UHGV virus genome: UHGV-0192057
DNA length: 37,956 bases
Direction: 5' to 3' (one strand)
From: a virus
The position numbers and the translations under genes are program-made. Below are positions 2,923 to 23,082 of the stretch, one piece after another. How positions within the stretch are numbered: the first letter of the stretch is position 1; the number at the start of each line of letters is the position of its first letter. The notes beneath the pieces are model-generated. The model saw nothing but the letters and a program-made list of their open reading frames with translations, did no database searches and had not been told where the DNA came from.

Positions 2923-3261
2923 ATGAAGCAACAACGAAATGCACGCATCAATAACAACACCGAACGCCACGTTGCACGCCAGCACTTCCGTAAAAATAGT
3001 GCGACCGTAACCACTGAAATCCACGCAACACCAGACGGTCACCCGGTAAAACAAACCGGCAAACACACCTGGGCGATTGGCGACACTGCCATCGTTATTC
3101 ACAAAAGTTTTCGCAGTCCTGTTACTGGCAGATTTAATTTCACCCTGACTCGCGGGGATGATTACTTCGGACAGGATTTCACATTTTTTGAAGCCTTAAG
3201 AACGGCAGACAGATTAATCAACGGCCTGTGTTTTCAATATCCGGGAAGTAAGTACCGATAA
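2923..3261 (+). CDS. Hypothetical early-operon protein (112 aa)
   Basis: ORF in the co-directional early gene block; no motif recognised. Confidence 0.5.
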   Translation: MKQQRNARINNNTERHVARQHFRKNSATVTTEIHATPDGHPVKQTGKHTWAIGDTAIVIHKSFRSPVTGRFNFTLTRGDDYFGQDFTFFEALRTADRLINGLCFQYPGSKYR

Positions 3262-3276
3262 ATAAAGGATTCAGTC

Positions 3277-3519
3277 ATGATCGAAGCCTACAAAATACTT
3301 ATTAATAACGCGTTGCAGCGTTACCACTTTGAACTCGCAAACAGGGGCGTAACTAAGGATGAAAGCCTTCGTAACTCACTGCGCGGCGCAATTATGGGAC
3401 TGTATAACTGCGCGCTGGGCAGCGATGACCGTGAAGCGCTGGAAGAATTAAAGTCGATTATGACAGAACTGTTTGAAGGTGAAATTGTCGAGCCTTACTT
3501 CACAGGAGTGGCAGCATGA
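3277..3519 (+). CDS. Hypothetical early-operon protein (80 aa)
   Basis: ORF tightly packed with neighbours; stop overlaps the next start (ATGA). Confidence 0.5.
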   Translation: MIEAYKILINNALQRYHFELANRGVTKDESLRNSLRGAIMGLYNCALGSDDREALEELKSIMTELFEGEIVEPYFTGVAA

Positions 3520-3641
3520 GCATATTCCTTTCATGGGTAATTCTGATTATCTCCGTGCTTATGGCAATCGGCATTATGCGAATTATCCACACACTGAAGG
3601 ATATCGAATTATTCTTTACCGGCGATAAACGCCGTAAATAA
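3516..3641 (+). CDS. Small hydrophobic protein (41 aa)
   Basis: Hand-translated MSIFLSWVILIISVLMAIGIMRIIHTLKDIELFFTGDKRRK; AGGAG upstream; ATGA overlap with the preceding gene; below the ORF-track length cutoff. Confidence 0.4.
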   Translation: MSIFLSWVILIISVLMAIGIMRIIHTLKDIELFFTGDKRRK

Positions 3642-3855
3642 AGCGAAAACCTTATGAAGAATGTAAAAGCAATACACACCATCGCCACTGTATGGGTGAT
3701 ATTTCAGGTGAGTGCGCTTATCTGGTTAGCCCTGAAGATCTGGGAATAACCTGAAGCCGAAAGCAGGCGCGGAATAACACCAGAAAACACACGAGCAATT
3801 AATTAAGGCATTCATGCCTTCGGGTTCCCTTTGTCTTTTTTTCAGGAGTCAACAA

Positions 3856-4086
3856 ATGAGAACAGCCGAATCACCCGGCAGAGAAATAGCCGCCAGACCA
3901 GCTAACCATCATGCACATATCAGCATGGCCGCAAGAAAAGCCGAGCGTGCACATATCTGCGAATTACTGCGCGAGCTGACTGAGACAGCGAAAGAGACAC
4001 ACACCTGTCCACAGGAAACCTGCGCAGCCATTGAACGACTGATTGCAATACTCGCCAACCCAGACGAACTGAAGGGGTGCGCATAA
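3856..4086 (+). CDS. Hypothetical early-operon protein (76 aa)
   Basis: ATG at 3856 with AGGAG 8 nt upstream (the track ORF starts earlier, at 3814); Cys/His-containing. Confidence 0.5.
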   Translation: MRTAESPGREIAARPANHHAHISMAARKAERAHICELLRELTETAKETHTCPQETCAAIERLIAILANPDELKGCA

Positions 4087-4667
4087 TGAACCATCTCATG
4101 ATTGACACCGAAACACTGGGTAACGGACCGGACGCAGCCATATTCGCGATTGGGGCGGTGTTTTTCGACCCGTTCACCGGAAAGCTGGGCAAGCAGTTTG
4201 AGAAACTCATCGACCCGGTGGATTCAGAACGCAACGGCGGAACCGTCAATGCAGCCACCGCTGTATGGTGGGCCGGACAATCCGTGGAGGCCAGATCCTG
4301 CCTGCGCAACGCAGAGGGAACAGAGCTTGCGGCAGTAACCGAATTTCTGGCGTTCATTTCACGCAATATGCATGACGAAAGCACGGGCAATTCACTGACC
4401 ATATGGTGTAAGGGCGCATCCTTCGATTTCCCGATCCTGAAATCCGCCATAACACGCACAGCCGGAGAAAAAAGCATCCCCTGGCGCTACTGGAACGAGC
4501 GCTGTATGCGCCCGCTTATCGCCATGGCTGAATCAACTGGATGGAAAATGCCAGGCAGATCAGGAAAAGAGGCCATTGCTCACACCGCGCTGGGCGACGC
4601 CATTTACCAGGCAAAGGTCGTGTCAGAAATCTGGCAGCGCTTCACAACACCATTCCTGAACATATGA
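4086..4667 (+). CDS. DnaQ-like 3'-5' exonuclease (DEDD family)
   Basis: N-terminal Exo I-like motif MIDTETLG and later H...D (HTALGDAIYQ); 193 aa; start overlaps the previous stop. Confidence 0.7.
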   Translation: MNHLMIDTETLGNGPDAAIFAIGAVFFDPFTGKLGKQFEKLIDPVDSERNGGTVNAATAVWWAGQSVEARSCLRNAEGTELAAVTEFLAFISRNMHDESTGNSLTIWCKGASFDFPILKSAITRTAGEKSIPWRYWNERCMRPLIAMAESTGWKMPGRSGKEAIAHTALGDAIYQAKVVSEIWQRFTTPFLNI

Positions 4668-4900
4668 GGTGAAGCCATGGTCGCCATCCTGAATGTGTGT
4701 TGCTGCCCCCCCCTGAACGTGGAAAGAAAAGCCCGCGCATCGCTGCGTTTATTCCGCGACGGCGTGCGGAATTTTTCACGCATAAAACCCCACGACTACC
4801 TGGTAATAAGAATCGGTTTTCGCTGGCGATTGCTGAGCAAAAACAACGGGGCGTCATGGGATTTATTAACGCACGAAACCTATAACAAAGAGGCCGCGTT

Positions 4901-5881
4901 ATGAGCAAAGAACTGTTATCCGGTACGCCACTGAAATGGGTGGGCGGAAAAAGCCGCATCATGAACACACTGAAGGCGCATCTGCCAGAAGCAGACTGCC
5001 TGGTTGAGCCGTTTGTGGGTGGCGCATCGGTATTCATGAACACCAGTTACAAGCGTTACATCCTGGGTGATTCCAATGGTGCGCTGATTAATTTCTACCG
5101 GCAAGCCAGGGACAACACCGACAGCCTGATCGACGAGGCGAAAACCCTGTTCCTGAACCACAACAACAGGGGTGACTATCTCATCATTCGCGAAACCTTT
5201 AACGCAGAGAATCATGCCTTCCTGAACAGCAGAACGGGAATAAGCGACCGCCGTGAACTGCGACTGGCCGCCATGTTTTTGTACCTGAACCGACACAGCT
5301 TTAACGGTTTGTTCCGCGTGAACGGAAAAGGCGATTTTAACGTGCCTTTCGGCTGCTACCGCAAGCCCTACTTCCCTGAGCGGGAAATCCGCGCATTTGC
5401 AGACAAGGCAAACAGCACCCGAACGCTGCTTATCCACGCAGATTTTAAGGATACGCTGAACTCTGCCAGTCACCTGTTCGGCATGGGCAACACGCTTTGC
5501 GTGTACTGCGATCCCCCTTACCTGCGATTCAGTGGCCGGGACAATTTCACCGCCTACGGAAAACCATTCGATGAAGACGAGCACGTTCGTCTGAGGGCAG
5601 CGCTTGACCGCCTTTCACAGGAAACGGGCGGCATGACCAGCATCACCATCTCCAATTCCGACACACCGGAAACACGACGCATTTATCGGGGTTACCGGAT
5701 GAACTGCATACAGGCACCACGAAGCGTTGGCGCAAGAACCCGGGAATCAGCACCGGAGGTTATCGCCACCCTGAGACAGTGCGACGCCTGCGGTCACCAT
5801 GGCGGTGGCTACTGCCCGGACTGCGGACCTGTAACGGGAGATGCAACTTACAGCGTGATGTTTACCCCTGCCAGTACGTGA
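4901..5881 (+). CDS. dam: DNA adenine methyltransferase, Dam family (probable GATC N6-adenine MTase)
   Basis: Motifs PLKWVGGK, EPFVGGASVF (SAM binding), FLYLNRHSFNGLFRVN and catalytic DPPY (VYCDPPY); matches E. coli Dam from memory across the N-terminal two-thirds. Confidence 0.88.
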   Translation: MSKELLSGTPLKWVGGKSRIMNTLKAHLPEADCLVEPFVGGASVFMNTSYKRYILGDSNGALINFYRQARDNTDSLIDEAKTLFLNHNNRGDYLIIRETFNAENHAFLNSRTGISDRRELRLAAMFLYLNRHSFNGLFRVNGKGDFNVPFGCYRKPYFPEREIRAFADKANSTRTLLIHADFKDTLNSASHLFGMGNTLCVYCDPPYLRFSGRDNFTAYGKPFDEDEHVRLRAALDRLSQETGGMTSITISNSDTPETRRIYRGYRMNCIQAPRSVGARTRESAPEVIATLRQCDACGHHGGGYCPDCGPVTGDATYSVMFTPAST

Positions 5882-5916
5882 ATAAACAGATGAATCAGTA
5901 ACACCGGAGTCAGGAA

Positions 5917-6153
5917 ATGAATAGCGAAAACAACAAAGAGCTTTTGCGGGAATTGCGTCTCATCGCCCGTGCACATGAGGAAGCAGCAAAAGTTATCGCA
6001 GCTGCTGGAAGACCAGATCTCGTTATCGCTTCAGCAATCTCACTGAGGATCACCATGGAAGCAATCCGGGTGATTCAGGATCAGGAAAGTGAAATCGCCA
6101 CCCTTAAAAAGCAGCTCAACGAGAAATCTGCCGGGCAAAGGAGTCAGCAATGA
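5917..6153 (+). CDS. Hypothetical protein (78 aa)
   Basis: ORF in the co-directional early block. Confidence 0.45.
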   Translation: MNSENNKELLRELRLIARAHEEAAKVIAAAGRPDLVIASAISLRITMEAIRVIQDQESEIATLKKQLNEKSAGQRSQQ

Positions 6154-6368
6154 TCCAGGAATCAACCGTTATCCGGTTCACAGCCAACGGCCGTCAGTAC
6201 GAGGTAGACGAAAGCCTGATTGACCAGGGCATGACACGCCAGGACTCACGCAATTCTGAGATGCATCACATCCGCCTTATCAACGGTTCGCACTTCTGCG
6301 CCACGAACATGGAAGAAGTACGCGTGCTGACAGCAACACGCAATACGGGAGGTAAAGCATGGCAGTGA
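6150..6368 (+). CDS. Hypothetical protein (72 aa)
   Basis: ORF in the early block; start overlaps the previous stop. Confidence 0.45.
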   Translation: MIQESTVIRFTANGRQYEVDESLIDQGMTRQDSRNSEMHHIRLINGSHFCATNMEEVRVLTATRNTGGKAWQ

Positions 6369-6721
6369 TTTATATCGCCGGTCCAATGACCGGATACAAA
6401 GATCACAACAGAACGGCGTTTTTCACAGAGGCGATGAGGCTCGCGGCAGACGGGCACGTTGTGCTGAACCCTGCCACGTTGCCTGACGGATTAAGCCAGC
6501 AGCAGCACATGAGCATTTGTATTCCGATGCTCATGTGTGCCGATGTCATTTACTTGCTGGAAGGCTGGGAGGATTCAGCTGGCGCGCGGGCGGAGTACGC
6601 AATGGCACTCAAGCTGAACATAGACGTGTCATTACCGCCTGTCAGGGAAGACGGTAAAAGCATCACGCAGCCGGGAGTCGATCAGACGCCGCACAACCAG
6701 CAGATTAACCTTTCGGAGTAA
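6359..6721 (+). CDS. DUF4406-like / nucleoside 2-deoxyribosyltransferase-like protein
   Basis: N-terminal IYIAGPMTG motif typical of that fold; 120 aa. Confidence 0.55.
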   Translation: MAVIYIAGPMTGYKDHNRTAFFTEAMRLAADGHVVLNPATLPDGLSQQQHMSICIPMLMCADVIYLLEGWEDSAGARAEYAMALKLNIDVSLPPVREDGKSITQPGVDQTPHNQQINLSE

Positions 6722-7149
6722 CGCAAATGCTCGCTGGCAGACAGACCAACAGATGCGCTCGCTTTGTTTTTTGCGGGCCTGACAAACGCCTTCATGGATG
6801 CGCTGTTCGTTTCTTCCAGATACAGAATGCGCTCAATCAGGCGTTCAGTGCTCATGAAATCCCTTTGCGTAATCAGACGAAGGTAGCTCTGTTTCTGCCA
6901 GCACGCCAGTTCGGCGACGAATTCACACTTGCTGCAAAACCAGGAAAAAACAAAAAACGCCAGCCCCCAAAGGCTCATCAGGACGGGAAAACCAACCAGA
7001 AGAAAGGACAATACCGCAGCAATCAGCGCCCCGGCGCGCAACATGGCAGCGGCTTTATTGCTGAGTATGAAAACCATCTCTTCCAGCCAATAGCTGTACC
7101 ACAGATGAAAAAAAATCTTCTTGTCTGCTTGCTCCATAGCAACAGGCAT
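6682..7149 (-). CDS. Hypothetical membrane protein (antisense cargo gene)
   Basis: 155 aa from ATG at 7149 with GGAGG 6 nt upstream; hydrophobic hairpin AGALIAAVLSFLLVGFPVLMSLWGLAFFVFSWF; its 3' end overlaps the end of the DUF4406 gene. Confidence 0.6.
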   Translation of the reverse strand: MPVAMEQADKKIFFHLWYSYWLEEMVFILSNKAAAMLRAGALIAAVLSFLLVGFPVLMSLWGLAFFVFSWFCSKCEFVAELACWQKQSYLRLITQRDFMSTERLIERILYLEETNSASMKAFVRPAKNKASASVGLSASEHLRYSERLICWLCGV

Positions 7150-7535
7150 AAACAACCTCCATTGTTAATAAACGCCGCTATCCCTCGGCGCATTCCATTT
7201 TTGCGCCGCGATTATACATACTTCAGCACGCAACACAAAAACCGCTTGCCAGCGCTCGTCGTGTCAGGTTACATTTCCGCTGCACCTCATAAAACGGGTG
7301 CCGGGTTTCGCAGCCTGCTGACAACCAAAGCGCACAACCGCGCCAGCGGTTTTTTTGTGCGTACTGTATTGCCACGTCTTTTTCGCGTCAGAATTATGGC
7401 GGGGCGTACGGGGCCGACTTCGGTCGGGCCGGGTTCTTTGGTTGCCGGTACTGCGAACCTCGTACACCTCGCCACCCACAGTTTCGCAGCTCTGGATGGT
7501 GAGTTTTCAAAACTTACAACCAAAGAGGCCACACC

Positions 7536-7757
7536 ATGGCAAACCGCAAGCAACAGCGCGCCCGCGCTGAGCGTCTTCACATCCGCAGCGAAATCAACCG
7601 CAGACTCCATCGGGCTGCATCTGTCGCCTTTATCATGCAGTCAAACGTATTACACCGACTTAACGACGGTATCGCTGCCGGGTATTACGCGGCAGTCTTC
7701 AGCTATCTCGCCGAAGATCTGGCAGAACTACAAAGCCTCATCAACCAGCACCGATAA
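7536..7757 (+). CDS. Hypothetical small basic protein (73 aa)
   Basis: ATG with AGAGG upstream; Arg-rich N-terminus; first plus-strand ORF after the structured gap. Confidence 0.4.
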   Translation: MANRKQQRARAERLHIRSEINRRLHRAASVAFIMQSNVLHRLNDGIAAGYYAAVFSYLAEDLAELQSLINQHR

Positions 7758-7825
7758 ACCACATCCTGAAGCCATCCCGCACCCGTGCGCGGGAGGCTTC
7801 CGCACGTCTGTTACCGGAGGTTCTC

Positions 7826-8242
7826 ATGAAGAGCGTTAAGGGACTTTCAGATATTCAGGACTTTTTTAACTGGATGTGGGCGGTGGATCCCCTGCTGGCT
7901 TCCCGCCTGAACAACTGGCACGACTACTACCGCCGCGCCTGTAAACAGGCCGCCCGCAGCATCACCACATACGGGGATTTCTCCTTCACCGTTGACGGTC
8001 GTTACCGCGTGGACGTGAAAGGTGACGGTGATGGCTTTGGTTTATTTCACATCAACGGCACCGACAGTACCGCCATCAGCTGGTCATCGTCAGAGATGGC
8101 ACTGGTTCTGGAAATGACAACCCACAGCGTGGCCGTGAAAGGCATATACACCGCAGAAGACTTTATCGGTGAATACCAGCGCCTTCTCGTGCTGTACCGC
8201 GCGGCGTTTCAGGAGGTCACTGGCGGGGAGTACGACGCATGA
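7826..8242 (+). CDS. Hypothetical protein upstream of A (138 aa)
   Basis: ORF whose stop overlaps the A start. Confidence 0.55.
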   Translation: MKSVKGLSDIQDFFNWMWAVDPLLASRLNNWHDYYRRACKQAARSITTYGDFSFTVDGRYRVDVKGDGDGFGLFHINGTDSTAISWSSSEMALVLEMTTHSVAVKGIYTAEDFIGEYQRLLVLYRAAFQEVTGGEYDA

Positions 8243-10752
8243 GTGACCGCAATGCACAGCTGGCGTACCCGTGGAACGCACCGCTACCGGTTATCGATCC
8301 TGAAACGTTCGGCAGAGCACAACCAACCGCATTACGCCAGGCCATTCAGAGCTACATCAACGAGGACATTCGCATTGATGCCAGACTGGATGAAGAAACC
8401 GTCTCCTTCCTGACAAACACAGACGAAGGCAAGCGAATTAATTCGCATCTTCACCACGACGAAGAGCGTCGGGTCAGACTGGAAAAACTGGCGAAGCACA
8501 AACGCGAGAATCCGCCCACGGTGGTATCTGAAGCCATGGCAGAGCTGCGCGCCCTGCCGCCGTTTCTTGCCAGTCCGCTCATCCGGGACCTGGCTCGCCT
8601 GAGCCGCAAACAGGAGAGCGCACGCCGGGAAGGGCTTAAGAATAACAGCGCATATGCGGCGGATAACTTCGTTCGTCATGGGCTGCGTGCCCGCCTGAAA
8701 CGTATCGCCCGTGTGAATGAACGCTTTGCCACCCCGGCCTTTAAGGCCACCGCCGCCCGCGAACGGCTGGATGAACTGCTTATACTGCCGCAGCTGAGCC
8801 GTGACGAAATCCAGCGCCTTGCCACCCTGACCGCCACCGCGTTTTCCGCCGCACTGGAGCGCGCATGTGATGAGATCATCGAAAAGACCGGCAGGGGTGA
8901 CGATGACCTGTTCACCTGGTTACTGACCTACCAGTCACTGGCACACATGGCGTTAAAACTGGGTATCACGCCACCCTGCTGGCCGTCGCTGGAAATCAGG
9001 CCAGACCGCCGCACCGCCCCCAACCCGGAACGGGTGCCGGGTGCGGTCATGCGCCTTTCCTGTGCGACATGGTGGAACAGTCAGTTAAGACACCTCCGGG
9101 ACATCTGGCGTGAAGAGCTGTTACGCGCCGCAGGTCTGGTGTCACGTAAGACATCGGTATATATCAGCCATGAAGCGTTACTGGACTGGCGCGAAAAACG
9201 CCAGCGCACCCGCGATTTTCTGAAGGCCTGGGACATCGAGAACGAAGAGGGAGAACGGCTCAGCCTTGAGGATATCTACTGGGCAGGTCTCTCTAATCCG
9301 CGTAACCGCCGTAACGAGATGATGACCTGCGCCCGGGGAATGGAGCAGGTCGCCGAAGCACGCGGCGATGTGGCGTTTTTCGTCACCGTCACAGCCCCTT
9401 CCCGTTTTCACAGCGTGAACGATGACGGCAGTCTGAACCCGAAATACTGCGGGGCAACGGTACGCGATGCCAGTGATTATCTGGTTTACCGCTTTTTCGC
9501 CGCCGTCCGCAGGGCCATCGACAAGGCCGGGCTGGGCTGGTACGGCGTGCGCACAGTGGAGCCCCACCACGACGGTACACCGCACTGGCACATGCTGGTA
9601 TTCACCAGCCAGGAAAACGAAGCCCGTATCACTGAAATCATGCGCAACGCCGCCATCAGGGAGGACCGCGCAGAGCTGGGTGATGATATCTCCCCGCGTT
9701 TTAAATGCGAAAAAATCGACCCGGCAAAAGGCACACCGACAAGCTATATCGCGACCTATATCGGTAAGAACCTGGACGCCAGCGCCTTCATGGGAAATGA
9801 CCCGAAAACCGGCAAACCTTACGTCGATAAGGAATCAGGCAAAACCATGGCCGAAACCGTGGAGAACGCCATCGGCTGGGCAGGCCTTCACCGCATCCAC
9901 CAGTTCCAGTTCTTCGGTATCCCGCCCCGCCAGGTATGGCGCGAACTCCGCAGCCTTGCCGGGCAGATGGCCCGTAACCCGACTGCCCCACAGCGTCTGG
10001 ACCATGACGACATTGACGCCATACTGGCCGCCGCCGACGTGGGATGTTTTGCCACCTATATCACCCGCCAGGGTGGTGTGCTCATTCCCCGCAACACGTA
10101 CCTGGTCCGCACCGCATACGAAACTGCCGAAGAGGCCAACGACTACGGCGAATTCCCGCAACGCATTTACGGCGTCCGCGCCCCGTTACTCGGGGAGCGC
10201 TACACCATATGCACCCACCCGGACACCTGGAAACTGGTCAGACGTAAGCCGGAAAACGAAGACCGCACGGACGAGGGTTTTGACGTTGAGTGCGGCTTTG
10301 CCGCACCTTGGACTCGTGGCAATAACTGTCCCCATGATGAAAAAACAGACACCGGAGAGGGTAAAACCCCACCACCGGAAACCAGGAAAGAACAAAAACT
10401 GGTCGTCCCGGGAGGTGATTTGGGTGAGTGGTTAAGGTCACTGACCCCCACAGAGCGAAAACAACTCACCAGGCAGCTGAAAGATGCGCCATCTGACACA
10501 AAAACCGTGAAAACCGGCGGCCCCACCACGCCCGATGACGTCATACATGTGCGTACAGCATTGCCGCTGACTGACGTCACCACCACCGTAATCAAGTCGG
10601 CACTGAGCGCGACGGGCGAGGAGCTACACAGTGGCGCAGCACTTTCCGTACACAGAGGTGCACGCGTTCGCCTGCCTGACGGGCGGATTGTGCACTGGGA
10701 TGAGAAATCACGAAGCCTGGTGGCAGCAGATCAACCGGAGGTGAACCCATGA
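8239..10752 (+). CDS. A: Replication initiation protein A (rolling-circle endonuclease)
   Basis: 837-aa ORF at the P2 A position; active-site-like segment HHDGTPHWHMLVF...YIATYIGKNL (tyrosines near a His cluster). Confidence 0.9.
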   Translation: MSDRNAQLAYPWNAPLPVIDPETFGRAQPTALRQAIQSYINEDIRIDARLDEETVSFLTNTDEGKRINSHLHHDEERRVRLEKLAKHKRENPPTVVSEAMAELRALPPFLASPLIRDLARLSRKQESARREGLKNNSAYAADNFVRHGLRARLKRIARVNERFATPAFKATAARERLDELLILPQLSRDEIQRLATLTATAFSAALERACDEIIEKTGRGDDDLFTWLLTYQSLAHMALKLGITPPCWPSLEIRPDRRTAPNPERVPGAVMRLSCATWWNSQLRHLRDIWREELLRAAGLVSRKTSVYISHEALLDWREKRQRTRDFLKAWDIENEEGERLSLEDIYWAGLSNPRNRRNEMMTCARGMEQVAEARGDVAFFVTVTAPSRFHSVNDDGSLNPKYCGATVRDASDYLVYRFFAAVRRAIDKAGLGWYGVRTVEPHHDGTPHWHMLVFTSQENEARITEIMRNAAIREDRAELGDDISPRFKCEKIDPAKGTPTSYIATYIGKNLDASAFMGNDPKTGKPYVDKESGKTMAETVENAIGWAGLHRIHQFQFFGIPPRQVWRELRSLAGQMARNPTAPQRLDHDDIDAILAAADVGCFATYITRQGGVLIPRNTYLVRTAYETAEEANDYGEFPQRIYGVRAPLLGERYTICTHPDTWKLVRRKPENEDRTDEGFDVECGFAAPWTRGNNCPHDEKTDTGEGKTPPPETRKEQKLVVPGGDLGEWLRSLTPTERKQLTRQLKDAPSDTKTVKTGGPTTPDDVIHVRTALPLTDVTTTVIKSALSATGEELHSGAALSVHRGARVRLPDGRIVHWDEKSRSLVAADQPEVNP

Positions 10753-11201: not shown

Positions 11202-11372
11202 ATGAACGACATCAGGAGGATCAGCGACAAAGAGCTTACGAAAATGATTGAGTCGGCGCAGCAGCTGCTTTCACGACGAAATCCGGTTGTGGAAGAAACA
11301 TGGTGGGAAAATTTACTGACAGCACTGACCGAACTCCGCGAACGCCGGAACAACGAAGGAGCCGCCAAATGA
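11202..11372 (+). CDS. Hypothetical small protein (56 aa)
   Basis: ATG with AAGGAG 7 nt upstream (MNDIRRISDKELTKMIESAQQLL...). Confidence 0.45.
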   Translation: MNDIRRISDKELTKMIESAQQLLSRRNPVVEETWWENLLTALTELRERRNNEGAAK

Positions 11373-11707
11373 AGACACCCAGAATGACCGGAAAGGTAAT
11401 CATTTTACGCTACCTGGAAACGCACGCACGCTTCAGCGCACCAGAGCTGGTTGAAAAACTGGGCGTGAAAAGGACCATCATTAATCAGGCCGCCGGAAAG
11501 ATGGTACGCGAAGGGCTGCTGGTTGTGGACGGGTACACGGACAAGATAACGCATTACCGGAAGCCAACGGAAAAGGAACGACTGGAGCTGGCGCAACGGG
11601 CAGAATGGCAACAAGAGCCGTCCGTAATTGAAGCCTGCAAGCGCAGCGAAATCATGAAGAGAATTCTGTTTATCTACGGCGCTGGCGAAGAGCTGCCAGT
11701 CATCTAA
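11369..11707 (+). CDS. Putative winged-helix DNA-binding protein (112 aa)
   Basis: ATG with AAGGAG upstream and ATGA overlap; helix-turn-helix-like segment SAPELVEKLGVKRTIINQAAGKMVREGLL. Confidence 0.5.
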   Translation: MKTPRMTGKVIILRYLETHARFSAPELVEKLGVKRTIINQAAGKMVREGLLVVDGYTDKITHYRKPTEKERLELAQRAEWQQEPSVIEACKRSEIMKRILFIYGAGEELPVI

Positions 11708-11739: not shown

Positions 11740-12057
11740 ATGCCAACACAGGTTGCAACAGAGGGACGACTGGCAGCAGACCCGAACACAAGGAGAACAA
11801 CCAAAGGAACCAACGTCACAACGGCACAACTGGCGGTATCACTACCCTGCCATGGCGCAGAACAGCCAACCACAATGTGGCTTTACCTTATTTCATTCGG
11901 GAAGCAGCACGAAGAACTGGCAAAACACAGAAAAGGCGATCTGATTCTGGTGCACGGAAACTTGCAGGTAAACAGGTATCAGGACAAGTACGGGCAACAG
12001 AAAGAGGGCTGGCAGCTGCTGATGCAAAGCATTATCAGCTCAAGAACCGGGCGATGA
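11740..12057 (+). CDS. SSB-like OB-fold protein, short (105 aa, no acidic C-terminal tail)
   Basis: N-terminus EGRLAADPNTRRTTKGTNVTTAQLAVS resembles the SSB beta1-beta2 region; lacks the C-terminal DDDIPF-type tail. Confidence 0.5.
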   Translation: MPTQVATEGRLAADPNTRRTTKGTNVTTAQLAVSLPCHGAEQPTTMWLYLISFGKQHEELAKHRKGDLILVHGNLQVNRYQDKYGQQKEGWQLLMQSIISSRTGR

Positions 12058-12067
12058 CTTCACGCAT

Positions 12068-12091
12068 GTTACCCTCAGCAGCGAGGGTAAC
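12068..12091. terminator. Hairpin between convergent SSB-like gene and hotspot membrane gene
   Basis: gttaccctc-agcagc-gagggtaac 9-bp stem, followed by a T-run on the plus strand. Confidence 0.45.
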
Positions 12092-12106
12092 ACAGGATTT
12101 CTTTTT

Positions 12107-12751
12107 TCAGTCAAACCGAAATCGGCCGCTTGTCGCGTATGCATAGGTGACCACCGCACCCAGCGCATTCACACGCTTCTTCACATAAATCACATTACCA
12201 TCCTGATAGTCACCGTATGGGTAGCAAATAAAGATTGTTTTTTGCAAATCAGGATCATCAACAAATGCCCCTGAACAACTTTTTGAGCTACCGCGACTGT
12301 ACTCATAGGGAGCGGAATAGAATGAATCTTCACCCGGAAGAAAATATATCAGCGTAACCAGGAGGGTAAACAGAATCATCCAGGTAAGAAGGCACATACC
12401 CGAAAAAAACTTAAGATACGATGTAACCCCGGTAAATTTAGACCGATCAACCAGGTTCTTTTTCAACAGGCACAGTGAGACAAAAACCGAAAGCACCACA
12501 GACACTGAAACAAGGCAGTTTGTCGTGAACGAATAAAGGTAGGTAATTCTGTAAACATCGTTTCGCCACCAAATAAAAAGAAAAATCCCCCCCAAAACAG
12601 AAAGCGTGACAAAAGTTAAATAAGGATATGAGTAATTTTTCACAGTTCTCACCCGGCAATACACCACTGATTCAGACAGATGATTATCATCACCACCCAC
12701 CCCCAAAAATCGCAAGATAAAAAATGCACAAAAGCGCACGAAATTGCACAA
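12107..12751 (-). CDS. Hypothetical 3-TM membrane protein in the AT-rich tin/old-equivalent hotspot (start uncertain)
   Basis: 214-codon open frame in conspicuously AT-rich DNA; three hydrophobic segments and a roughly 85-aa C-terminal soluble domain. The track start is TTG; in-frame ATGs occur only near codon 123. Confidence 0.5.
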   Translation of the reverse strand: MCNFVRFCAFFILRFLGVGGDDNHLSESVVYCRVRTVKNYSYPYLTFVTLSVLGGIFLFIWWRNDVYRITYLYSFTTNCLVSVSVVLSVFVSLCLLKKNLVDRSKFTGVTSYLKFFSGMCLLTWMILFTLLVTLIYFLPGEDSFYSAPYEYSRGSSKSCSGAFVDDPDLQKTIFICYPYGDYQDGNVIYVKKRVNALGAVVTYAYATSGRFRFD

Positions 12752-13197
12752 TTTTTCTTATGTGTTTCATCCCCATTCAGCCCAGTAACGGCGCTGGCTG
12801 AGGCCGGTTTGCACGGTGCACGAAAAACGAGGCAATTGCAGCGCGCAGGCGACGAGGGAAGGGCGCCCGAATTGAGGGGTGGAAGGCAGGTTGCTTTATT
12901 TGGGGTCGTATTGCGCGTGATACGCACGCAGTGAAGCCGGTTCTGAAAAAACCACACCGAAACAGAGTCAGAAAAACAGGCCGCCAGAATGCGTCTGGTT
13001 GAGTTTTACGGGGTCGGGATTAAATGCGGAAACATCACACCGCAGGCATGACGCGAAAAAGAGAAAAACCACAGCAAAACATAATGTTAAATGTTATTGA
13101 TGAGTTGAGAAGCGAAAGGTGTATTGCGTTGACAGAGCTGGAGAGTCGGGGCATAAATTTTTTATGCCCCGGCGAAGCAGCCGACAAGCGAAGCGCG

Positions 13198-14241
13198 TCA
13201 GCTGGCGTTATCCTGAAGCAACGCATAGGGGTTAAAGCGCATTACCTCGCTTCCCAGCCATTCATTGACATGCTTCATGGCCTCCATGACAGGTTGCAGC
13301 TCGTTGATGAAAAACACCCTCGCCGCTTTCTCAACGTCACCGAGCGCCGCGTTCCCGTCAGGCATTGCCCCCATCAGCTGAGGCGGTACACGGTGAGCCG
13401 CAAGGATATCGTCACGGGCACTCCCCTTGATGTTAAGGAATTCGTCCTTCGCGGTGATTTGCTGGAACGGCAGTATTTGCACACCATCCTTGCCGCCACC
13501 TGGCGCGTGCAGAAGGATATTGCGGAACGCCCCCTTGCCACGGGATTCCGTGAGTGTTTTCTTGATGGCTTCCACGCTTTCAGCGTTTGCCTGGGCGGCA
13601 CCAACATAGACAATGCACCCGGCATGTGAACCGTTGTCATAGTAGAGCTTGCGGAACGTATCCGCTGAGTTCGACAGACTCACCGACAGCAACCCACCGA
13701 TATACTCCGGCATCCCGTAGATTTCCTGGTTGATATCGGGGTTCAGAACGTGGCACACAGCCCCCTTACGGAAAGCAAATTCAGAACCATCATCATTGAG
13801 GTACCAGTACGTATCGAGATCACTGCCCCGCCGCGTGTATTTCGCCAGCGCAGGACGAAGCGCAATGGGTTCACCGAACTTGTTGCGGCGGACTTCAAGA
13901 TAGGCATTACCGAACACGAACCAGTCCAGCGCAAACGCGGAAAACGCCTGGCGGGACAGTAGCGGATGAGGAACAAAGCAGCCGTTCAGGGCATTACGCT
14001 TAAAATACAGGGCCGACTGGTGCCATGATGCACGACGCGAGGCGCGAGCAATGGCATTCCAGTCCATGGGGGTGTCATAGTAGCGGCCATTATCGGCGCA
14101 CGACATGTTATCAAGCAGATCAAGACGGCTTGCTTCATAAGGACCGTCAAACGTGAAAGCACTGAGTGACGGCGCTGATTTCAGTGCATCAGCCAGTGAG
14201 CCCGTGCCGCGCTTTCCGGTGTATTTTTTACGTTTACTCAT
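13198..14241 (-). CDS. Q: Portal protein (gpQ)
   Basis: 347 aa; position next to cos and upstream of the large terminase; P2 gpQ-like. Confidence 0.93.
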   Translation of the reverse strand: MSKRKKYTGKRGTGSLADALKSAPSLSAFTFDGPYEASRLDLLDNMSCADNGRYYDTPMDWNAIARASRRASWHQSALYFKRNALNGCFVPHPLLSRQAFSAFALDWFVFGNAYLEVRRNKFGEPIALRPALAKYTRRGSDLDTYWYLNDDGSEFAFRKGAVCHVLNPDINQEIYGMPEYIGGLLSVSLSNSADTFRKLYYDNGSHAGCIVYVGAAQANAESVEAIKKTLTESRGKGAFRNILLHAPGGGKDGVQILPFQQITAKDEFLNIKGSARDDILAAHRVPPQLMGAMPDGNAALGDVEKAARVFFINELQPVMEAMKHVNEWLGSEVMRFNPYALLQDNAS

Positions 14242-14246
14242 TGTGT

Positions 14247-15980
14247 TCAGAACTCCATTGCAAAGCCACGATTATCCTCACGCTCTGCGCCGATTGGCTC
14301 ATTGATAACAGCAAGCATGGTTGCCCAGGCGAGATCACCATGACTGACACCGCGTGAGCGGTCAGTGTCATAGGTGATATAGCCGCCGGGCGTCTGTATT
14401 TTTCGCACCGATGCAAAGGCCTGTACCAGGTCGCGCTCGCTGCGGTCATACTCCCAGCGTCCGGCACGGACCACCTGAAGCATCTTCATGACCAGCGCCC
14501 GCTTTGAAGCGATATTAAAGTTATACGGAACAGCCAGGGGGAAGAATTTTTTCACTATCTGATAAACCCCTTCCCCGTTCCCGCCGGTGACATCAATCCC
14601 GATATGCTTCACATTGTATTTTTGGGTGTACTCCTCAATCAGGGCGGCCTGCTGTTCAAACTCCATGCCCTGAACCCTGACGGTTTCCACCGTACGAAAA
14701 CGCCCACCGACAACAAGGGGTGGCACGCACACCGACAGCGCCCCGCAGTCCCCCTTCCCGCTGCTGCCGTTGGCGTCATACCCGAGCCAGACTTCCCTCA
14801 CCCCCATGGGGCGGACAGCAAAAGGCTTCCAGTCCGGCCATTCGTCATAGCCATCAACACCGCACCCGACGAGCGTATTCAGACTGAAGGCTGCCTCACC
14901 ATCACGGACAAATTCGCACATGTACAGATTGCGAAATTCACTTTCTGTATTTTCGCCGCGAATATCATCAATACTGGTGAACTGCCATCCGTTAGCGACA
15001 GCATCCTCAATGGTGACAATCTGCCGCCACGTTTTGTCGGGAAAGAGCACGCCCCTCTTCAGGTGAGCATGTGAAACATCAAACTCACTGCGTTTTGAGC
15101 GTGGCTGTTCGCTGTTCCAGCGGTCCCCCGTCCAGAACTGATACGCCTCATGCATTTCCCCCGACGGCGTCGAGAAGTAAGTGCGCGTAAGCCCTTCCAG
15201 GGTCGCCATTGCCCCGGCAACCTTCCTGATGTTCACAAAGTTACTGACCCAGAAAAATTCGTCGAATTTAAGATGACCGGTATAGGACTGCGCGGTGGCA
15301 GCTGACGTACCGAGGAAGTGCAGCTCCGCGCCGTTGGACAGCACGATCTTGTCGCCCCCTTTCAGCTCAACATCCACTTCCAGCGCCGCCTGCTGAATAA
15401 AATGCTTGAACTGATACGCCTGACGACGGGAGGCGGATAAAAATATCTGGTTGCGCTGATACCCGGCGGAGACGTCATCACGCAGTGCATCAAGGAGCGC
15501 CTCGCGCGCAAAATACCAGGTCGCACCAATCTGACGCGACTTCAGGATCATACGGTTGCGGTGGTGACGGTTTTCGTACCATTCACGTTGATGCCACGCC
15601 AGCGTCGGGAGGATTTTTTCACGAAGCGCGACAATCTGTTCTTCGGTGAAGTGATTTTTCAGTCTGCGTTTACGGGGCTTTTTACCGGAAACGGCCTGTT
15701 CTCCCTGACCGTCATTCAGTTTTTTCAGCTGGCGCGTGAGAAGGTCAATTTCCTTAAAATCGCTGCCGCTTTTCTCTGTTTTTGTGGTGAGCTGGATCAG
15801 GCGCGCATCAATGGACTGGGTGACCCGCTGGATCGGAGGTGTGGCATCCCACTCATCGCGTTTTTTCCATGAGTAAATCGTGTTCTGGCTGATCCCCATC
15901 AGTTGCGAGATTTCCGCAGGTGTGTACCCTTGCCAGTAAAGTTGTCTTGCCCTTATGCGGACAAATGCATCCTGAATCAT
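14247..15980 (-). CDS. P: Terminase large (ATPase) subunit (gpP)
   Basis: ATG at 15980 (MIQDAFVRIR...); N-terminal HTH; P2 gpP-like; divergent from O. Confidence 0.93.
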   Translation of the reverse strand: MIQDAFVRIRARQLYWQGYTPAEISQLMGISQNTIYSWKKRDEWDATPPIQRVTQSIDARLIQLTTKTEKSGSDFKEIDLLTRQLKKLNDGQGEQAVSGKKPRKRRLKNHFTEEQIVALREKILPTLAWHQREWYENRHHRNRMILKSRQIGATWYFAREALLDALRDDVSAGYQRNQIFLSASRRQAYQFKHFIQQAALEVDVELKGGDKIVLSNGAELHFLGTSAATAQSYTGHLKFDEFFWVSNFVNIRKVAGAMATLEGLTRTYFSTPSGEMHEAYQFWTGDRWNSEQPRSKRSEFDVSHAHLKRGVLFPDKTWRQIVTIEDAVANGWQFTSIDDIRGENTESEFRNLYMCEFVRDGEAAFSLNTLVGCGVDGYDEWPDWKPFAVRPMGVREVWLGYDANGSSGKGDCGALSVCVPPLVVGGRFRTVETVRVQGMEFEQQAALIEEYTQKYNVKHIGIDVTGGNGEGVYQIVKKFFPLAVPYNFNIASKRALVMKMLQVVRAGRWEYDRSERDLVQAFASVRKIQTPGGYITYDTDRSRGVSHGDLAWATMLAVINEPIGAEREDNRGFAMEF

Positions 15981-16047
15981 TGACGCCCCCTTGCTGTTTG
16001 ATCTCAAGAGTAAACGCCCGCGCATTCATCCAGGTATCCGGTGCCAT

Positions 16048-21111: not shown

Positions 21112-23082
21112 ATGAGCAAAAAACACTTTGAACTGATTACTGCCACCAACCGCGCAGAATTCGCTGAAAAAGTTAACAAGCGGTTACAGGAAGGCTGGGA
21201 ACTTCTCGGTAATGCCGGTATTGCATCAGAGCCGGGAGTCCCCTGGTATCTCATGCAGGCTATGGTTTCAGGCAGTGATGACCAGGGAGGCACCATTATC
21301 ACCCCGACATCCGACAGCGAACCGGAGTGGTATTACGTTGTGGTGAGCGCTGGTCAGTCCAACTCTATGGCATACGGTGAGGGGTTACCTCTCCCGGACA
21401 GTTACGATAAACCCGATTCGCGCATTCGCCAGCTGGCACGCCGCAGCACCGTAACCCCGAGCGGAAAAGCCTGTGCCTATAACGACATCATTCTGGCGGA
21501 TCACTGCCTGCATGACGTGCAGGATATGAGCCAGTACAACCACCCGAAAGCCGACCTGAACAAAGGTCAGTATGGCTGTGTGAGTCAGGGATTGCACATT
21601 GCGAAGCGCCTGCTGCCATTTATCCCGGCAAATGCGGGGATCCTTCTGGTCCCATGCAGCCGTGGCGGTTCCGGCTTTACAACCGGTGATGCGGGGCAAT
21701 TCAGCGAGATCGGCGGCGCAACTGAAAAATCCTGCCGCTGGGGAACGAACACGCCGCTGTACAAGGATTTAATCAGCCGCACAAAAGCAGCGCTGGCGAA
21801 AAATCCGAAAAACGTCCTGCTGGCCGTCTGCTGGACACAGGGCGAGGCAGATCTTGAGAAAGAACAAAACGCCGCACAGCATAAAGATCTTTTCACAGCC
21901 ATGGTGAAGCAGTTCCGGGCTGACCTGGCCGATGTTGCGAAGCAGTGCAACCAGGGCAACCCTGAAAGCGTGCCGTGGATTTGTGGAGATACCACCTACC
22001 ACTGGAAAAAAACCTACGAAGCACAGTACGCAACCGTGTATGGCGGATACAAAAACAGCACTGAGAAGAATATTGTTTTTGTGCCTTTTGTTACGGATGA
22101 GTACGGGAAAAACACCCCAACAAACGAGCCGACAGAAGATCCGGATATTGCGGAAGCGGGTTATTACGGTGCCGCATCCCGCAGTAGCGGAAACTGGGTA
22201 AGCCATCTGCGTGGAACGCACTTCAGCTCATGGGCCCGCCGGGGCATTATTGCCGATCGCATGGCGTCAGCAATCCTGCTTAACGTCGGCCGCACGCTGC
22301 CATTTATTGCGGGTACAGAGCCGGAACGCGTGGCAAAACCATCACAGGATGCACCGGGCGGCATCAGTAAGCCATCTTCACCGGAAACAGAACAACCGGC
22401 AGTCAGACCGGGGCCGGTCACGCTCATGAGTCTGCTGGCATCATCTCCTGAACTGGAAAGCCAGGGCTGGACGCTGAGCGAAGGCAAAAACGGGGCCAAC
22501 ACACCAAAACAACTGAAAGACATGCTGATCGGTGATGAGGAAGCAACAGGGAAAAAAGCCCTGAAACTGACCAAACAGGAAGGCAATACCTGGTATCTGG
22601 ATCATAAGGCCGGTAATGGTGCTGACCTTCTGAAAAATGGCGGGACTGTAAGTTGCCGATTCAAAATCGAGGGTGAGCTGAAAAAAGACCAGTACGCAAT
22701 GGCGATGTACTGGAAAACATCAGCATTACCGCAGGATGTGAAATTACTGGGGGCAGATCCAAATAATTTATTGCTCTCATTCTTTCTTCAGACAGACAGC
22801 GCAAACCTGAATCTGATGTATCACAAAACGCCAAACGAACAACTGGGAACCTTTGGTCAGTTCAATAACAACTGGCACACCATAGCGTTTCGTTTTGCGG
22901 GAAACAACAGCACCCAGGTAACACCGGTTCTGGATGGCGTGGACGGAAAACCGTTCATGCTTTCCACATCAAAAGCCGATGTTACCAACGACACGTTACG
23001 CGTGACCGATATCACGTATCGGCCGACCTATACCGTACTGATTGACAGCCTGAGCGTTGTCGTAAATCAGCCACCGGCATAA
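21112..23082 (+). CDS. NanS-p-like sialate O-acetylesterase (DUF1737-like N-terminus + SASA/SGNH esterase core + C-terminal domain)
   Basis: 656 aa; motifs VVVSAGQSNSMAYGEG (GQSN catalytic-Ser block), PCSRGGSGF, WTQGEADL; N-terminus MSKKHFELITATNRAEFAEKVNKRLQEGWELLG resembles the DUF1737 domain of prophage NanS-p esterases. Family assignment is from memory. Confidence 0.6.
   Translation: MSKKHFELITATNRAEFAEKVNKRLQEGWELLGNAGIASEPGVPWYLMQAMVSGSDDQGGTIITPTSDSEPEWYYVVVSAGQSNSMAYGEGLPLPDSYDKPDSRIRQLARRSTVTPSGKACAYNDIILADHCLHDVQDMSQYNHPKADLNKGQYGCVSQGLHIAKRLLPFIPANAGILLVPCSRGGSGFTTGDAGQFSEIGGATEKSCRWGTNTPLYKDLISRTKAALAKNPKNVLLAVCWTQGEADLEKEQNAAQHKDLFTAMVKQFRADLADVAKQCNQGNPESVPWICGDTTYHWKKTYEAQYATVYGGYKNSTEKNIVFVPFVTDEYGKNTPTNEPTEDPDIAEAGYYGAASRSSGNWVSHLRGTHFSSWARRGIIADRMASAILLNVGRTLPFIAGTEPERVAKPSQDAPGGISKPSSPETEQPAVRPGPVTLMSLLASSPELESQGWTLSEGKNGANTPKQLKDMLIGDEEATGKKALKLTKQEGNTWYLDHKAGNGADLLKNGGTVSCRFKIEGELKKDQYAMAMYWKTSALPQDVKLLGADPNNLLLSFFLQTDSANLNLMYHKTPNEQLGTFGQFNNNWHTIAFRFAGNNSTQVTPVLDGVDGKPFMLSTSKADVTNDTLRVTDITYRPTYTVLIDSLSVVVNQPPA

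Follow-up and report, generated by a model that had tools for sequence, protein, structure and literature searches.

The P2-like prophage UHGV-0192057 carries, next to its cos site, a minus-strand gene (12107-12643) for a 178-amino-acid membrane protein which, we tentatively propose, may act in the cell envelope of the lysogen to exclude superinfecting phages. The window analysed here is the whole stretch of 37,956 nucleotides, a complete P2-like prophage of the P88/Xuanwuvirus type. The protein consists of three transmembrane helices followed by a small beta-rich domain that is predicted to be periplasmic. Judged by sequence and profile comparison, it represents a new, non-homologous family within a known kind, the membrane cargo of prophage hotspots, and this family has no homology to any described one. 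The protein has already been catalogued as an uncharacterised entry; the start codon, fold, likely topology, family and wider distribution are new here.

Open reading frame and start codon

An earlier note on this DNA had pointed to a minus-strand open frame of 214 codons in strikingly AT-rich sequence, without deciding on its start codon. The frame is present as described, from a TTG at 12751 down to 12107, and it contains the C-terminal sequence that had been quoted. Its length is unexpected, as had been said: the stop-free run is 216 codons, and only 1 of 5000 dinucleotide-preserving shuffles of 12058-12780 reached 214 (mean longest run 94 codons, standard deviation 22). The G+C content of the gene is indeed lower than that of the window (0.42 versus 0.53). 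In the windowed calculation that had been suggested (150-bp windows), values were 0.36-0.46 across 12125-12800 versus 0.51-0.59 on either side, a difference that is moderate rather than striking.

The coding sequence itself is shorter than 214 codons. It has 178 codons and runs on the minus strand from GTG (12643-12641) to TGA (12109-12107), and its product is identical to RefSeq protein WP_000801013.1. In Escherichia coli loci that are 100% identical, the Prokaryotic Genome Annotation Pipeline (PGAP) annotates exactly 12107-12643, as WP_000801013.1, "hypothetical protein". Homologues at about 52% identity start with an ATG (MKKDSYPYL or MKNYSYPYL) that aligns with GTG 12643. A Shine-Dalgarno-like GGGTGAG (12648-12654, minus strand) is located 5 nt upstream of this GTG and is invariant between alleles, while the bases farther upstream are variable. 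Close alleles have 0-1 substitutions inside 12107-12643. Strain SCU-106, for example, has 1 synonymous difference from the window in the 537-bp coding sequence and many substitutions in the approximately 160 bp upstream, including amino-acid-changing ones (VVY to VGD) in the 36-codon in-frame extension (12644-12751, minus strand). The family comparison showed no conservation of this extension in the homologues.

Because of the homologue starts, the Shine-Dalgarno-like site and the divergence of alleles in the upstream part only, we take the 36 upstream codons to be noncoding: 5' untranslated leader and promoter DNA that is open by chance. Two other starts were considered. The reading from TTG 12751 is ruled out by the homologue starts at GTG 12643 and by the amino-acid-changing differences upstream. 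A GTG three codons upstream, which gives the MRTV... start used by Rousset et al., has neither a Shine-Dalgarno-like sequence nor a counterpart in the homologues. On these comparisons, the start codon is GTG 12643.

Architecture and predicted topology of the protein

The three membrane-spanning segments that had been predicted were recovered both by hydropathy (residues 9-26, 43-60 and 83-102) and in an AlphaFold model made from a 30-sequence family alignment (helices 6-29, 38-61 and 73-101). The model had a mean predicted local distance difference test score of 93.9 and a predicted template modelling score of 0.83. By the hydropathy borders, helix 1 is encoded by 12566-12619, helix 2 by 12464-12517 and helix 3 by 12338-12397, all on the minus strand. 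Helix 1 is also apparent in the family alignment, where it ends in the nearly invariant W26. Helix 3 is supported by charge counts as well, and is preceded by a basic loop (residues 61-82) that is predicted to be cytoplasmic.

The remainder of the protein, residues 103-178 (12110-12337, minus strand), is a beta-rich domain that was recognised from the AlphaFold model, from conservation and from a match to the profile phrog_1416. With 9 Tyr and 2 Cys in 76 residues, it is rich in these residues, as the earlier note had it. The model has five strands in this domain (105-116, 125-130, 135-140, 151-158 and 162-171) and a further short strand in loop 1 (residues 34-36), whose modelled position is consistent with pairing with the C-terminal domain on the same side of the membrane. 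As modelled, it most resembles a small barrel of OB-like type, without an assigned family.

The C-terminal domain has a mean identity of 46% versus 19-36% for the helices, which are the least conserved part; together with the N-terminal motif MKxxSYPYL it is the most conserved part of the protein. Such conservation would fit a conserved binding partner, probably of the host. Conserved positions include W26, P103-G104 and the motifs SCSGA, DPxL, ICxP and KRSNxLG. Two cysteines, the nearly invariant C123 (12275-12277, minus strand) and the invariant C140 (12224-12226, minus strand), flank the beta2-beta3 hairpin, and they probably form a disulfide in the periplasm that would clamp the beta domain.

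Averaged over the 30 family members, the net charge is +3.4 for loop 2, +1.4 for the N-terminus, +1.0 for loop 1 and +0.6 for the 73-residue C-terminal domain. From these charges and the positive-inside rule, we infer that the N-terminus is inside and the C-terminus outside, with loop 1 and the beta domain in the periplasm. The predicted topology is thus a cytoplasmic N-terminus, three helices and a beta-barrel-like periplasmic domain of about 75 residues. The prediction leaves only about 30 residues on the cytoplasmic side. As nearly all of the non-membrane mass lies in the one predicted periplasmic domain, the protein would have no cytoplasmic sensor or enzyme domain.

Homology searches

The protein had been described as one of unknown function, and the remote-homology searches bear this out: no annotated family was matched in Pfam, NCBIfam, PADLOC, PHROGs or the PDB sequences. 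The window protein gave no match in Pfam or NCBIfam and none with the defence models of PADLOC-DB v2, and a profile search of the PDB sequences returned nothing. When the 30 family members were searched, none of them had a match in Pfam or NCBIfam, and hence neither an enzymatic domain nor a lysis family was detected by Pfam. The sole family match was phrog_1416, a profile without functional annotation (E=1.2e-49, positions 1-90 of 90), which is matched by the C-terminal 90 residues, that is, by the last membrane helix and the beta domain. The profile covers only this part because the gene calls in the deposited phage genomes are truncated and start at an internal Met; in the family alignment the complete three-helix protein is conserved.

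Structural comparison gave no significant match either. Foldseek searches of the PDB, made with a first, weaker model, returned only sub-threshold OB folds, with RPA (4gop_A, E=0.035, probability 0.94) followed by ExoVII, RecO and LysRS. Nothing significant was found in BFVD, where a match at rank 23 was annotated as an NfeD-like C-terminal domain (E=0.21). Pairwise profile alignment with hhalign gave probabilities of 0.25% for P22 SieA, 1% for the E. coli NfeD protein YbbJ and 0.15% for P2 Tin.

Position in the P2 old-tin slot

The gene lies between the replication gene A (gpA, 8239-10752, plus strand) and the portal gene (13198-14241, minus strand), next to cos, which is the location of the gpA-gpQ hotspot of P2-like phages. 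It converges with the plus-strand early operon and is codirectional with the portal and terminase genes across cos. The claim that it is transcribed opposite to its neighbours is therefore correct for the early operon, from gpA to an SSB-like gene, and incorrect for the portal and terminase genes. The approximate cos site of the prophage may be at 12790-12870, where the G-rich GGCGCTGG...GCAC (12790-12814) and GGCGACGAGGGAAGGGCGC (12848-12866) resemble the P2 cosR sequence GGCGAGGCGGGGAAAGCAC.

In the annotation of P2, tin and old are on the minus strand between gene A/orf91 and cosR, and the old-tin mRNA starts about 150 bp inside cosR. Like old and tin, the gene in the window runs leftward from just inside cosR and converges on the early replication operon, so that the placement at the tin/old position proposed earlier proved right. 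The products are different. Tin has no sequence relationship to the protein studied here (see the hhalign value above) and, by our reading, no evident membrane-spanning segment, whereas our protein is a membrane protein. For Old, the P2 record gives an AAA family ATPase and exonuclease, whereas our protein has no enzymatic domain.

Rousset et al. (2022) analysed 18,150 E. coli loci and established by experiment that the gpA-gpQ interval is a defence hotspot (PMC9122126). Their Table S5B lists, as System #4, a protein with "3 TM" and no Pfam domain that had 470 occurrences (PMC9122126). The sequence given for it (MRTVKNYSYPYLTF...GRFRFD) is identical to the window protein from KNYSYPYL to the C-terminus and begins three codons farther upstream, and the accession WP_000801013 is present in Table S5A. 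System #4 is thus the same protein, entered in that catalogue without fold, topology, family, start codon or wider distribution. No characterisation came up in literature searches for WP_000801013, for WP_000120056 (the protein of 434-type phages, see below) or for exclusion functions of phage 434 and of P2-like phages.

The gene as a mobile cassette

A stretch of 758 bp, 76% identical, is common to phage 434, which carries a homologue, and an E. coli P2-like locus; it begins 137 bp before the gene and ends 90 bp after it. The mobile unit therefore comprises the upstream region, the open reading frame (ORF) and the terminator. The gene has a G+C content of 0.32-0.44 versus 0.39-0.53 in the prophage loci around it, and the same trend is found in 434, Salmonella, Klebsiella, Enterobacter and Providencia. 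The low G+C and the occurrence of a discrete cassette in unrelated phage backbones agree with the earlier description of the gene as cargo; its atypical base composition is also that of a moron.

Three direct repeats with a 10-bp period (TTGTGCA / TCGTGCG / TTGTGCA; 12725-12751, minus strand) follow an A-tract 82-108 nt upstream of the start codon. The same repeats are located at a fixed distance from the start in the cos-adjacent P2-like loci of E. coli, Salmonella and Enterobacter and in phage 434 (4895-4925). They also occur in the last 45 nt, at the right end, of phage P88_4B11, which is without the gene, and related (A/G)TGCA repeats (P2 about 7452-7480) lie just upstream of the annotated old-tin transcript start. 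Their presence in P88_4B11, and in related form upstream of P2 old, speaks against an operator specific to this gene. Since they are found in P88_4B11 and P2 regardless of the cargo, the repeats belong to the conserved cos-proximal region of P2-like phages, and they are probably part of a leftward promoter region that drives whatever cargo occupies the slot; binding sites for a regulator or signals for packaging are other readings. In P2-like phages, (A/G)TGCA repeats with a 10-bp period lie about 100 bp from cosR whatever the cargo is. As these cos-flank repeats are also present in 434, upstream of the homologue, a P2-like phage is the suggested source from which the lambdoid copy was captured.

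A stem-loop of 10-12 bp (12067-12092) directly follows the stop codon, between the convergent SSB-like gene and the gene studied here, with a T-run on the plus strand at 12099-12108. Predicted RNA folding energies are -19.6 kcal/mol (z = -4.5) for the minus strand and -17.7 kcal/mol (z = -3.8) for the plus strand. From its sequence this is a probable terminator, possibly a bidirectional one, and the 434 copy is also followed by a hairpin and a T-run.

In phage 434, a 56-amino-acid ORF annotated as "putative membrane protein" is located at 4755-4925, just upstream of the homologue. It was considered as a partner gene and rejected as probably not a real one: the P2-like loci have nothing corresponding to it, and at its 3' end it runs into the conserved repeat region.

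Distribution and genomic settings of the family

A profile search of 1.84 billion representative proteins gave 60 matches with E up to 1e-3. Full-length members have 150-200 amino acids and the same layout. The named sources are Escherichia, Shigella, Salmonella, Klebsiella, Enterobacter, Phytobacter, Citrobacter, Proteus, Providencia and one Pseudomonas. The family is small and limited to Gammaproteobacteria, and all named members are called "hypothetical" or "transmembrane protein". Scans of IMG/VR with the Phytobacter, Proteus and Pseudomonas members returned nothing useful.

Within E. coli the family is common. Among 5426 complete genomes, the window allele is present in full length in 22 and the 434-type allele in 915, the latter including O157:H7 prophages integrated at ybhC (protein WP_000120056). 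A third allele is present in about 77 genomes, and 83 more carry one at 78% identity; roughly one in five complete E. coli genomes has a family member. The copy of E. coli STEC17-183 (1501-2245) is an apparent pseudogene: it has a 2-bp length difference and is frameshifted, its protein match is N-terminally truncated, and no coding sequence is annotated there.

The settings of the gene differ between phage types. In P2-like prophages of E. coli, Salmonella, Klebsiella and Enterobacter it is flanked by portal/cos and gene A and is invariably codirectional with the portal gene, and the portal proteins of these prophages are 41-100% identical to that of the window. In 434-type lambdoid phages (434, mEp332, 2B8 and many IMG/VR contigs) its neighbours are xis and exo, and it is opposite to the pL operon. 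In a Providencia lambdoid prophage it follows the direction of the late operon and is flanked by Q and the holin gene.

Some copies are chromosomal. In Phytobacter and Kosakonia the gene stands beside two DUF4062-STAND-TPR genes; its G+C content matches the surrounding locus and the gene order is kept across three species. In the Phytobacter diazotrophicus locus (2959-9510), the neighbours are DUF4062 + AAA (STAND) + TPR proteins of 945 and 1235 amino acids. We read this domain combination as a defence-type one. In two Serratia assemblies, both metagenome-assembled genomes, a homologue lies directly downstream of a ptsG-type phosphotransferase system (PTS) EIICB gene in the chromosomal holB-ptsG neighbourhood, with a G+C content of 0.44 versus 0.54 for the locus (one locus at 7877-10510). 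PtsG is the inner-membrane factor that phage HK97 needs for DNA entry. The Serratia copies next to ptsG offer a weak hint at function, or else reflect coincidence.

Other genes of the prophage

The integrase gene is at 290-1321. A gene for a Dam-like, D12-class N6-adenine DNA methyltransferase (4901-5881, plus strand) lies within the early operon; a gene of the same kind is also found in the Salmonella and Enterobacter relatives of the prophage. Downstream of gene A, the early operon (plus strand) goes on to encode two ORFs of 134 and 69 amino acids, a winged-helix protein and an SSB-like protein of 105 amino acids. Beyond the portal gene, the terminase gene (14247-16025, minus strand) is followed by the capsid, lysis and tail genes.

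The SSB-like OB-fold protein (11740-12057, plus strand; Pfam SSB, E=1.5e-13; phrog_44) is encoded by the last gene of the early operon. By our reading, its 105 residues make up the OB domain only and would leave no room for the C-terminal tail of cellular SSB. Tin of P2 is said to poison the T4 SSB gp32. The SSB-like protein, encoded in the hotspot where P2 has Tin, could be a decoy or defence-related cargo. PGAP annotates the winged-helix protein (11369-11707, plus strand) as a MarR family regulator. Its match in PHROGs is phrog_142 ("Ren-like exclusion protein", E=1e-28), and in PADLOC it has a weak match to a winged-helix model. It may be further exclusion or counter-exclusion cargo of the same hotspot.

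Between the lysis and tail regions, a 656-amino-acid protein (21112-23082, plus strand) with DUF1737, SASA (sialate O-acetylesterase-like) and DUF6645 domains is probably the product of another accessory gene, which ends in a local dip in G+C content. It resembles the NanS-p type esterases of Shiga-toxin prophages. A 201-amino-acid open frame (13024-13629, plus strand) lies opposite the 3' part of the portal gene, which it overlaps, has no Pfam match and is probably spurious. Instead of this frame, related prophages have an annotated plus-strand gene of 167 amino acids between cos and portal.

Possible function

The earlier note had named as candidates a superinfection-exclusion or abortive-infection effector and a lysogenic-conversion membrane protein, which are plausible. 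Most likely the protein has its site of action in the cell envelope. Of the readings weighed, the best fit is a superinfection-exclusion protein that would be expressed from the prophage and act in the envelope, a role that we hold to be possible and somewhat short of likely. By analogy with old-tin in the same slot of P2, the gene would be expressed from the prophage. The product would reside in the inner membrane, where its periplasmic domain and loop 1 would bind a conserved inner-membrane or periplasmic component of the host, or alternatively the DNA-delivery apparatus of the incoming phage, and the binding would block the genome entry of competing phages.

Several observations speak for such a role. 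In slot and direction the gene corresponds to old and tin, the exclusion genes of P2, and it belongs to the gpA-gpQ defence hotspot (PMC9122126). It forms a discrete mobile cassette with 758 bp shared between phage types, a low G+C content and a terminator-like hairpin. All prophage copies examined are in accessory-gene positions, spread over at least three kinds of temperate phage, and the chromosomal copies of Phytobacter and Kosakonia adjoin the DUF4062-STAND-TPR genes. The most conserved part of the protein is its C-terminal domain, which is predicted to be periplasmic and has two conserved cysteines, and no cytoplasmic sensor or enzyme domain is predicted. A predicted periplasmic domain with little cytoplasmic mass would favour an exclusion or envelope function over an abortive system that senses infection in the cytoplasm.

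A functional analogue is SieA of phage P22, an inner-membrane protein of 162-164 amino acids with three predicted helices and an uncertain start codon, which blocks DNA delivery (PMC10883804). Its conserved motif FxRYPxEAxxFNK is predicted to be cytoplasmic, and P22-like phages carry its gene between genes 16 and 9 (PMC10883804). Like SieA, the protein studied here is the product of a single prophage gene, an inner-membrane protein of about 160-180 amino acids with three predicted helices. Unlike SieA, to which it is not homologous, its family alignment is without FxRYPxEAxxFNK, its folded beta domain is predicted to be in the periplasm, and its gene sits in P2-like and lambdoid contexts rather than between genes 16 and 9. 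HK97 gp15 and T4 Imm are also small phage inner-membrane exclusion proteins that block DNA entry, and gp15 is encoded by an accessory "moron" gene and linked to the host permease PtsG. To our knowledge, both have one or two membrane helices and no beta-barrel domain.

Other results weigh against an exclusion role. The family has no homology to known exclusion or defence proteins, whether by PADLOC over the 30 members or by hhalign with SieA. The Providencia copy adjoins lysis genes, which could point to a role in lytic growth. The protein is absent from the table of cloned and tested systems of Rousset et al. (PMC9122126), and from the text-form supplementary files of two other defence screens, Vassallo 2022 and DefensePredictor. 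The hotspot also carries non-defence cargo such as partition systems and cytolethal distending toxin (PMC9122126), so that position alone does not imply defence. Upstream of the gene, a sigma-70 consensus scan gave no site and inspection by eye gave no convincing -10/-35 pair; expression in the lysogen is therefore argued from the analogy with P2. Among the 434-type alleles, 14 codons have amino-acid changes and 9 have synonymous changes only, a polymorphism that, on these codon counts, shows only moderate constraint.

The architecture and the predicted periplasmic orientation would fit equally well an envelope factor of lysogenic conversion that has nothing to do with phages, such as an immunity protein against bacteriocins or contact-dependent toxins, a modulator of a membrane complex or a stress-tolerance protein, by which the fitness of the lysogen would be raised. 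The P2 hotspot demonstrably holds non-defence cargo, E. coli strains, both commensal and pathogenic and O157:H7 among them, very commonly carry the family, and the Phytobacter and Kosakonia copies, with their locus-matching G+C and kept gene order, suggest a retained benefit to the host; the conserved periplasmic domain, too, would suit a conserved host partner. We nevertheless think this unlikely, because the Pfam, NCBIfam and PDB-sequence searches revealed no similarity to any immunity or envelope family and every prophage copy is in a position typical of genes for inter-phage competition. An abortive-infection effector would instead stay inert in the membrane until infection and then oligomerise or open and depolarise the cell, like RexB-type or holin-like effectors. 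Small multi-pass membrane proteins in a defence hotspot suggest this, the more so as Rousset et al. regard the transmembrane proteins of known systems as thought to be suicide effectors (PMC9122126), and one of the 30 members had a very weak match to RexB (E=0.09), the only PADLOC match of the family. But the cassette holds a single gene whose neighbours differ in each context, the 56-amino-acid ORF of 434 being absent from the P2-like loci; the roughly 30 predicted cytoplasmic residues offer no obvious means of sensing infection from inside; and conservation is highest in the predicted extracytoplasmic domain rather than in the helices. Such an effector seems improbable.

Two further explanations were weighed. 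An accessory function in the lytic cycle (lysis timing, protection of the membrane during replication, or blocking of re-adsorption or re-injection by progeny) is suggested by the Providencia homologue, which lies between the antiterminator gene Q and the holin gene in late-operon direction, and by the P2-like copies, which are codirectional with the late P-Q operon across cos, where read-through is conceivable. The 434-type copy, in contrast, is far from the lysis genes, between xis and exo and opposite to the early-left transcript, and in P2-like phages the gene is outside the lysis cassette. As the protein also lacks the features of a holin, antiholin or spanin and matches no lysis family of Pfam, we find a lytic role quite improbable. 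Finally, the protein might be NfeD-like, with its helices and C-terminal OB fold acting on an SPFH complex (stomatin/HflKC-type) of the host. In size and layout the protein resembles short NfeD proteins, and E. coli YbbJ and Bacillus subtilis YuaF (PF01957) indeed share the order of N-terminal helices and small C-terminal beta-barrel. The best PDB matches of the beta domain in the weaker model were OB folds, RPA first, and one BFVD match at rank 23 carries the NfeD annotation. All of these structural matches are, however, below significance, a Pfam search of the 30 members with E values up to 10 gave no match to NfeD, the hhalign probability for YbbJ is as low as given above, and an SPFH gene is adjacent in no context examined. 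We also know of no association of NfeD proteins with a conserved cysteine pair and a predicted periplasmic orientation. Kinship of function with NfeD is very improbable indeed.

Returning to exclusion at the envelope, a more far-reaching version can be formulated, although we regard it as speculative and rather doubtful. The protein would be the founding member of a widespread class of envelope-acting exclusion proteins with three membrane helices and a disulfide-bonded periplasmic beta-barrel. It would bind a conserved inner-membrane component of the host that DNA translocation requires, for example a PTS permease such as PtsG or ManYZ, for which the Serratia copies next to ptsG are a hint. 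Lambdoid phages would have acquired the cassette of about 760 bp from the cos flank of P2-like ones.

Significance of the family

The cos-proximal hotspot of P2 is a proven reservoir of anti-phage systems, and the gene studied here is its fourth most frequent entry. The family extends beyond P2-like phages to 434-type lambdoid prophages and to prophages of Salmonella, Klebsiella, Enterobacter and Providencia. At about 540 bp the gene is compact; it is also common, structurally well defined and easily tested, and model phages exist. If the protein does exclude phages at the envelope, it would be a common, unrecognised determinant of phage host range, relevant to phage therapy and phage typing, and it would add a new structural type to the few inner-membrane exclusion proteins.

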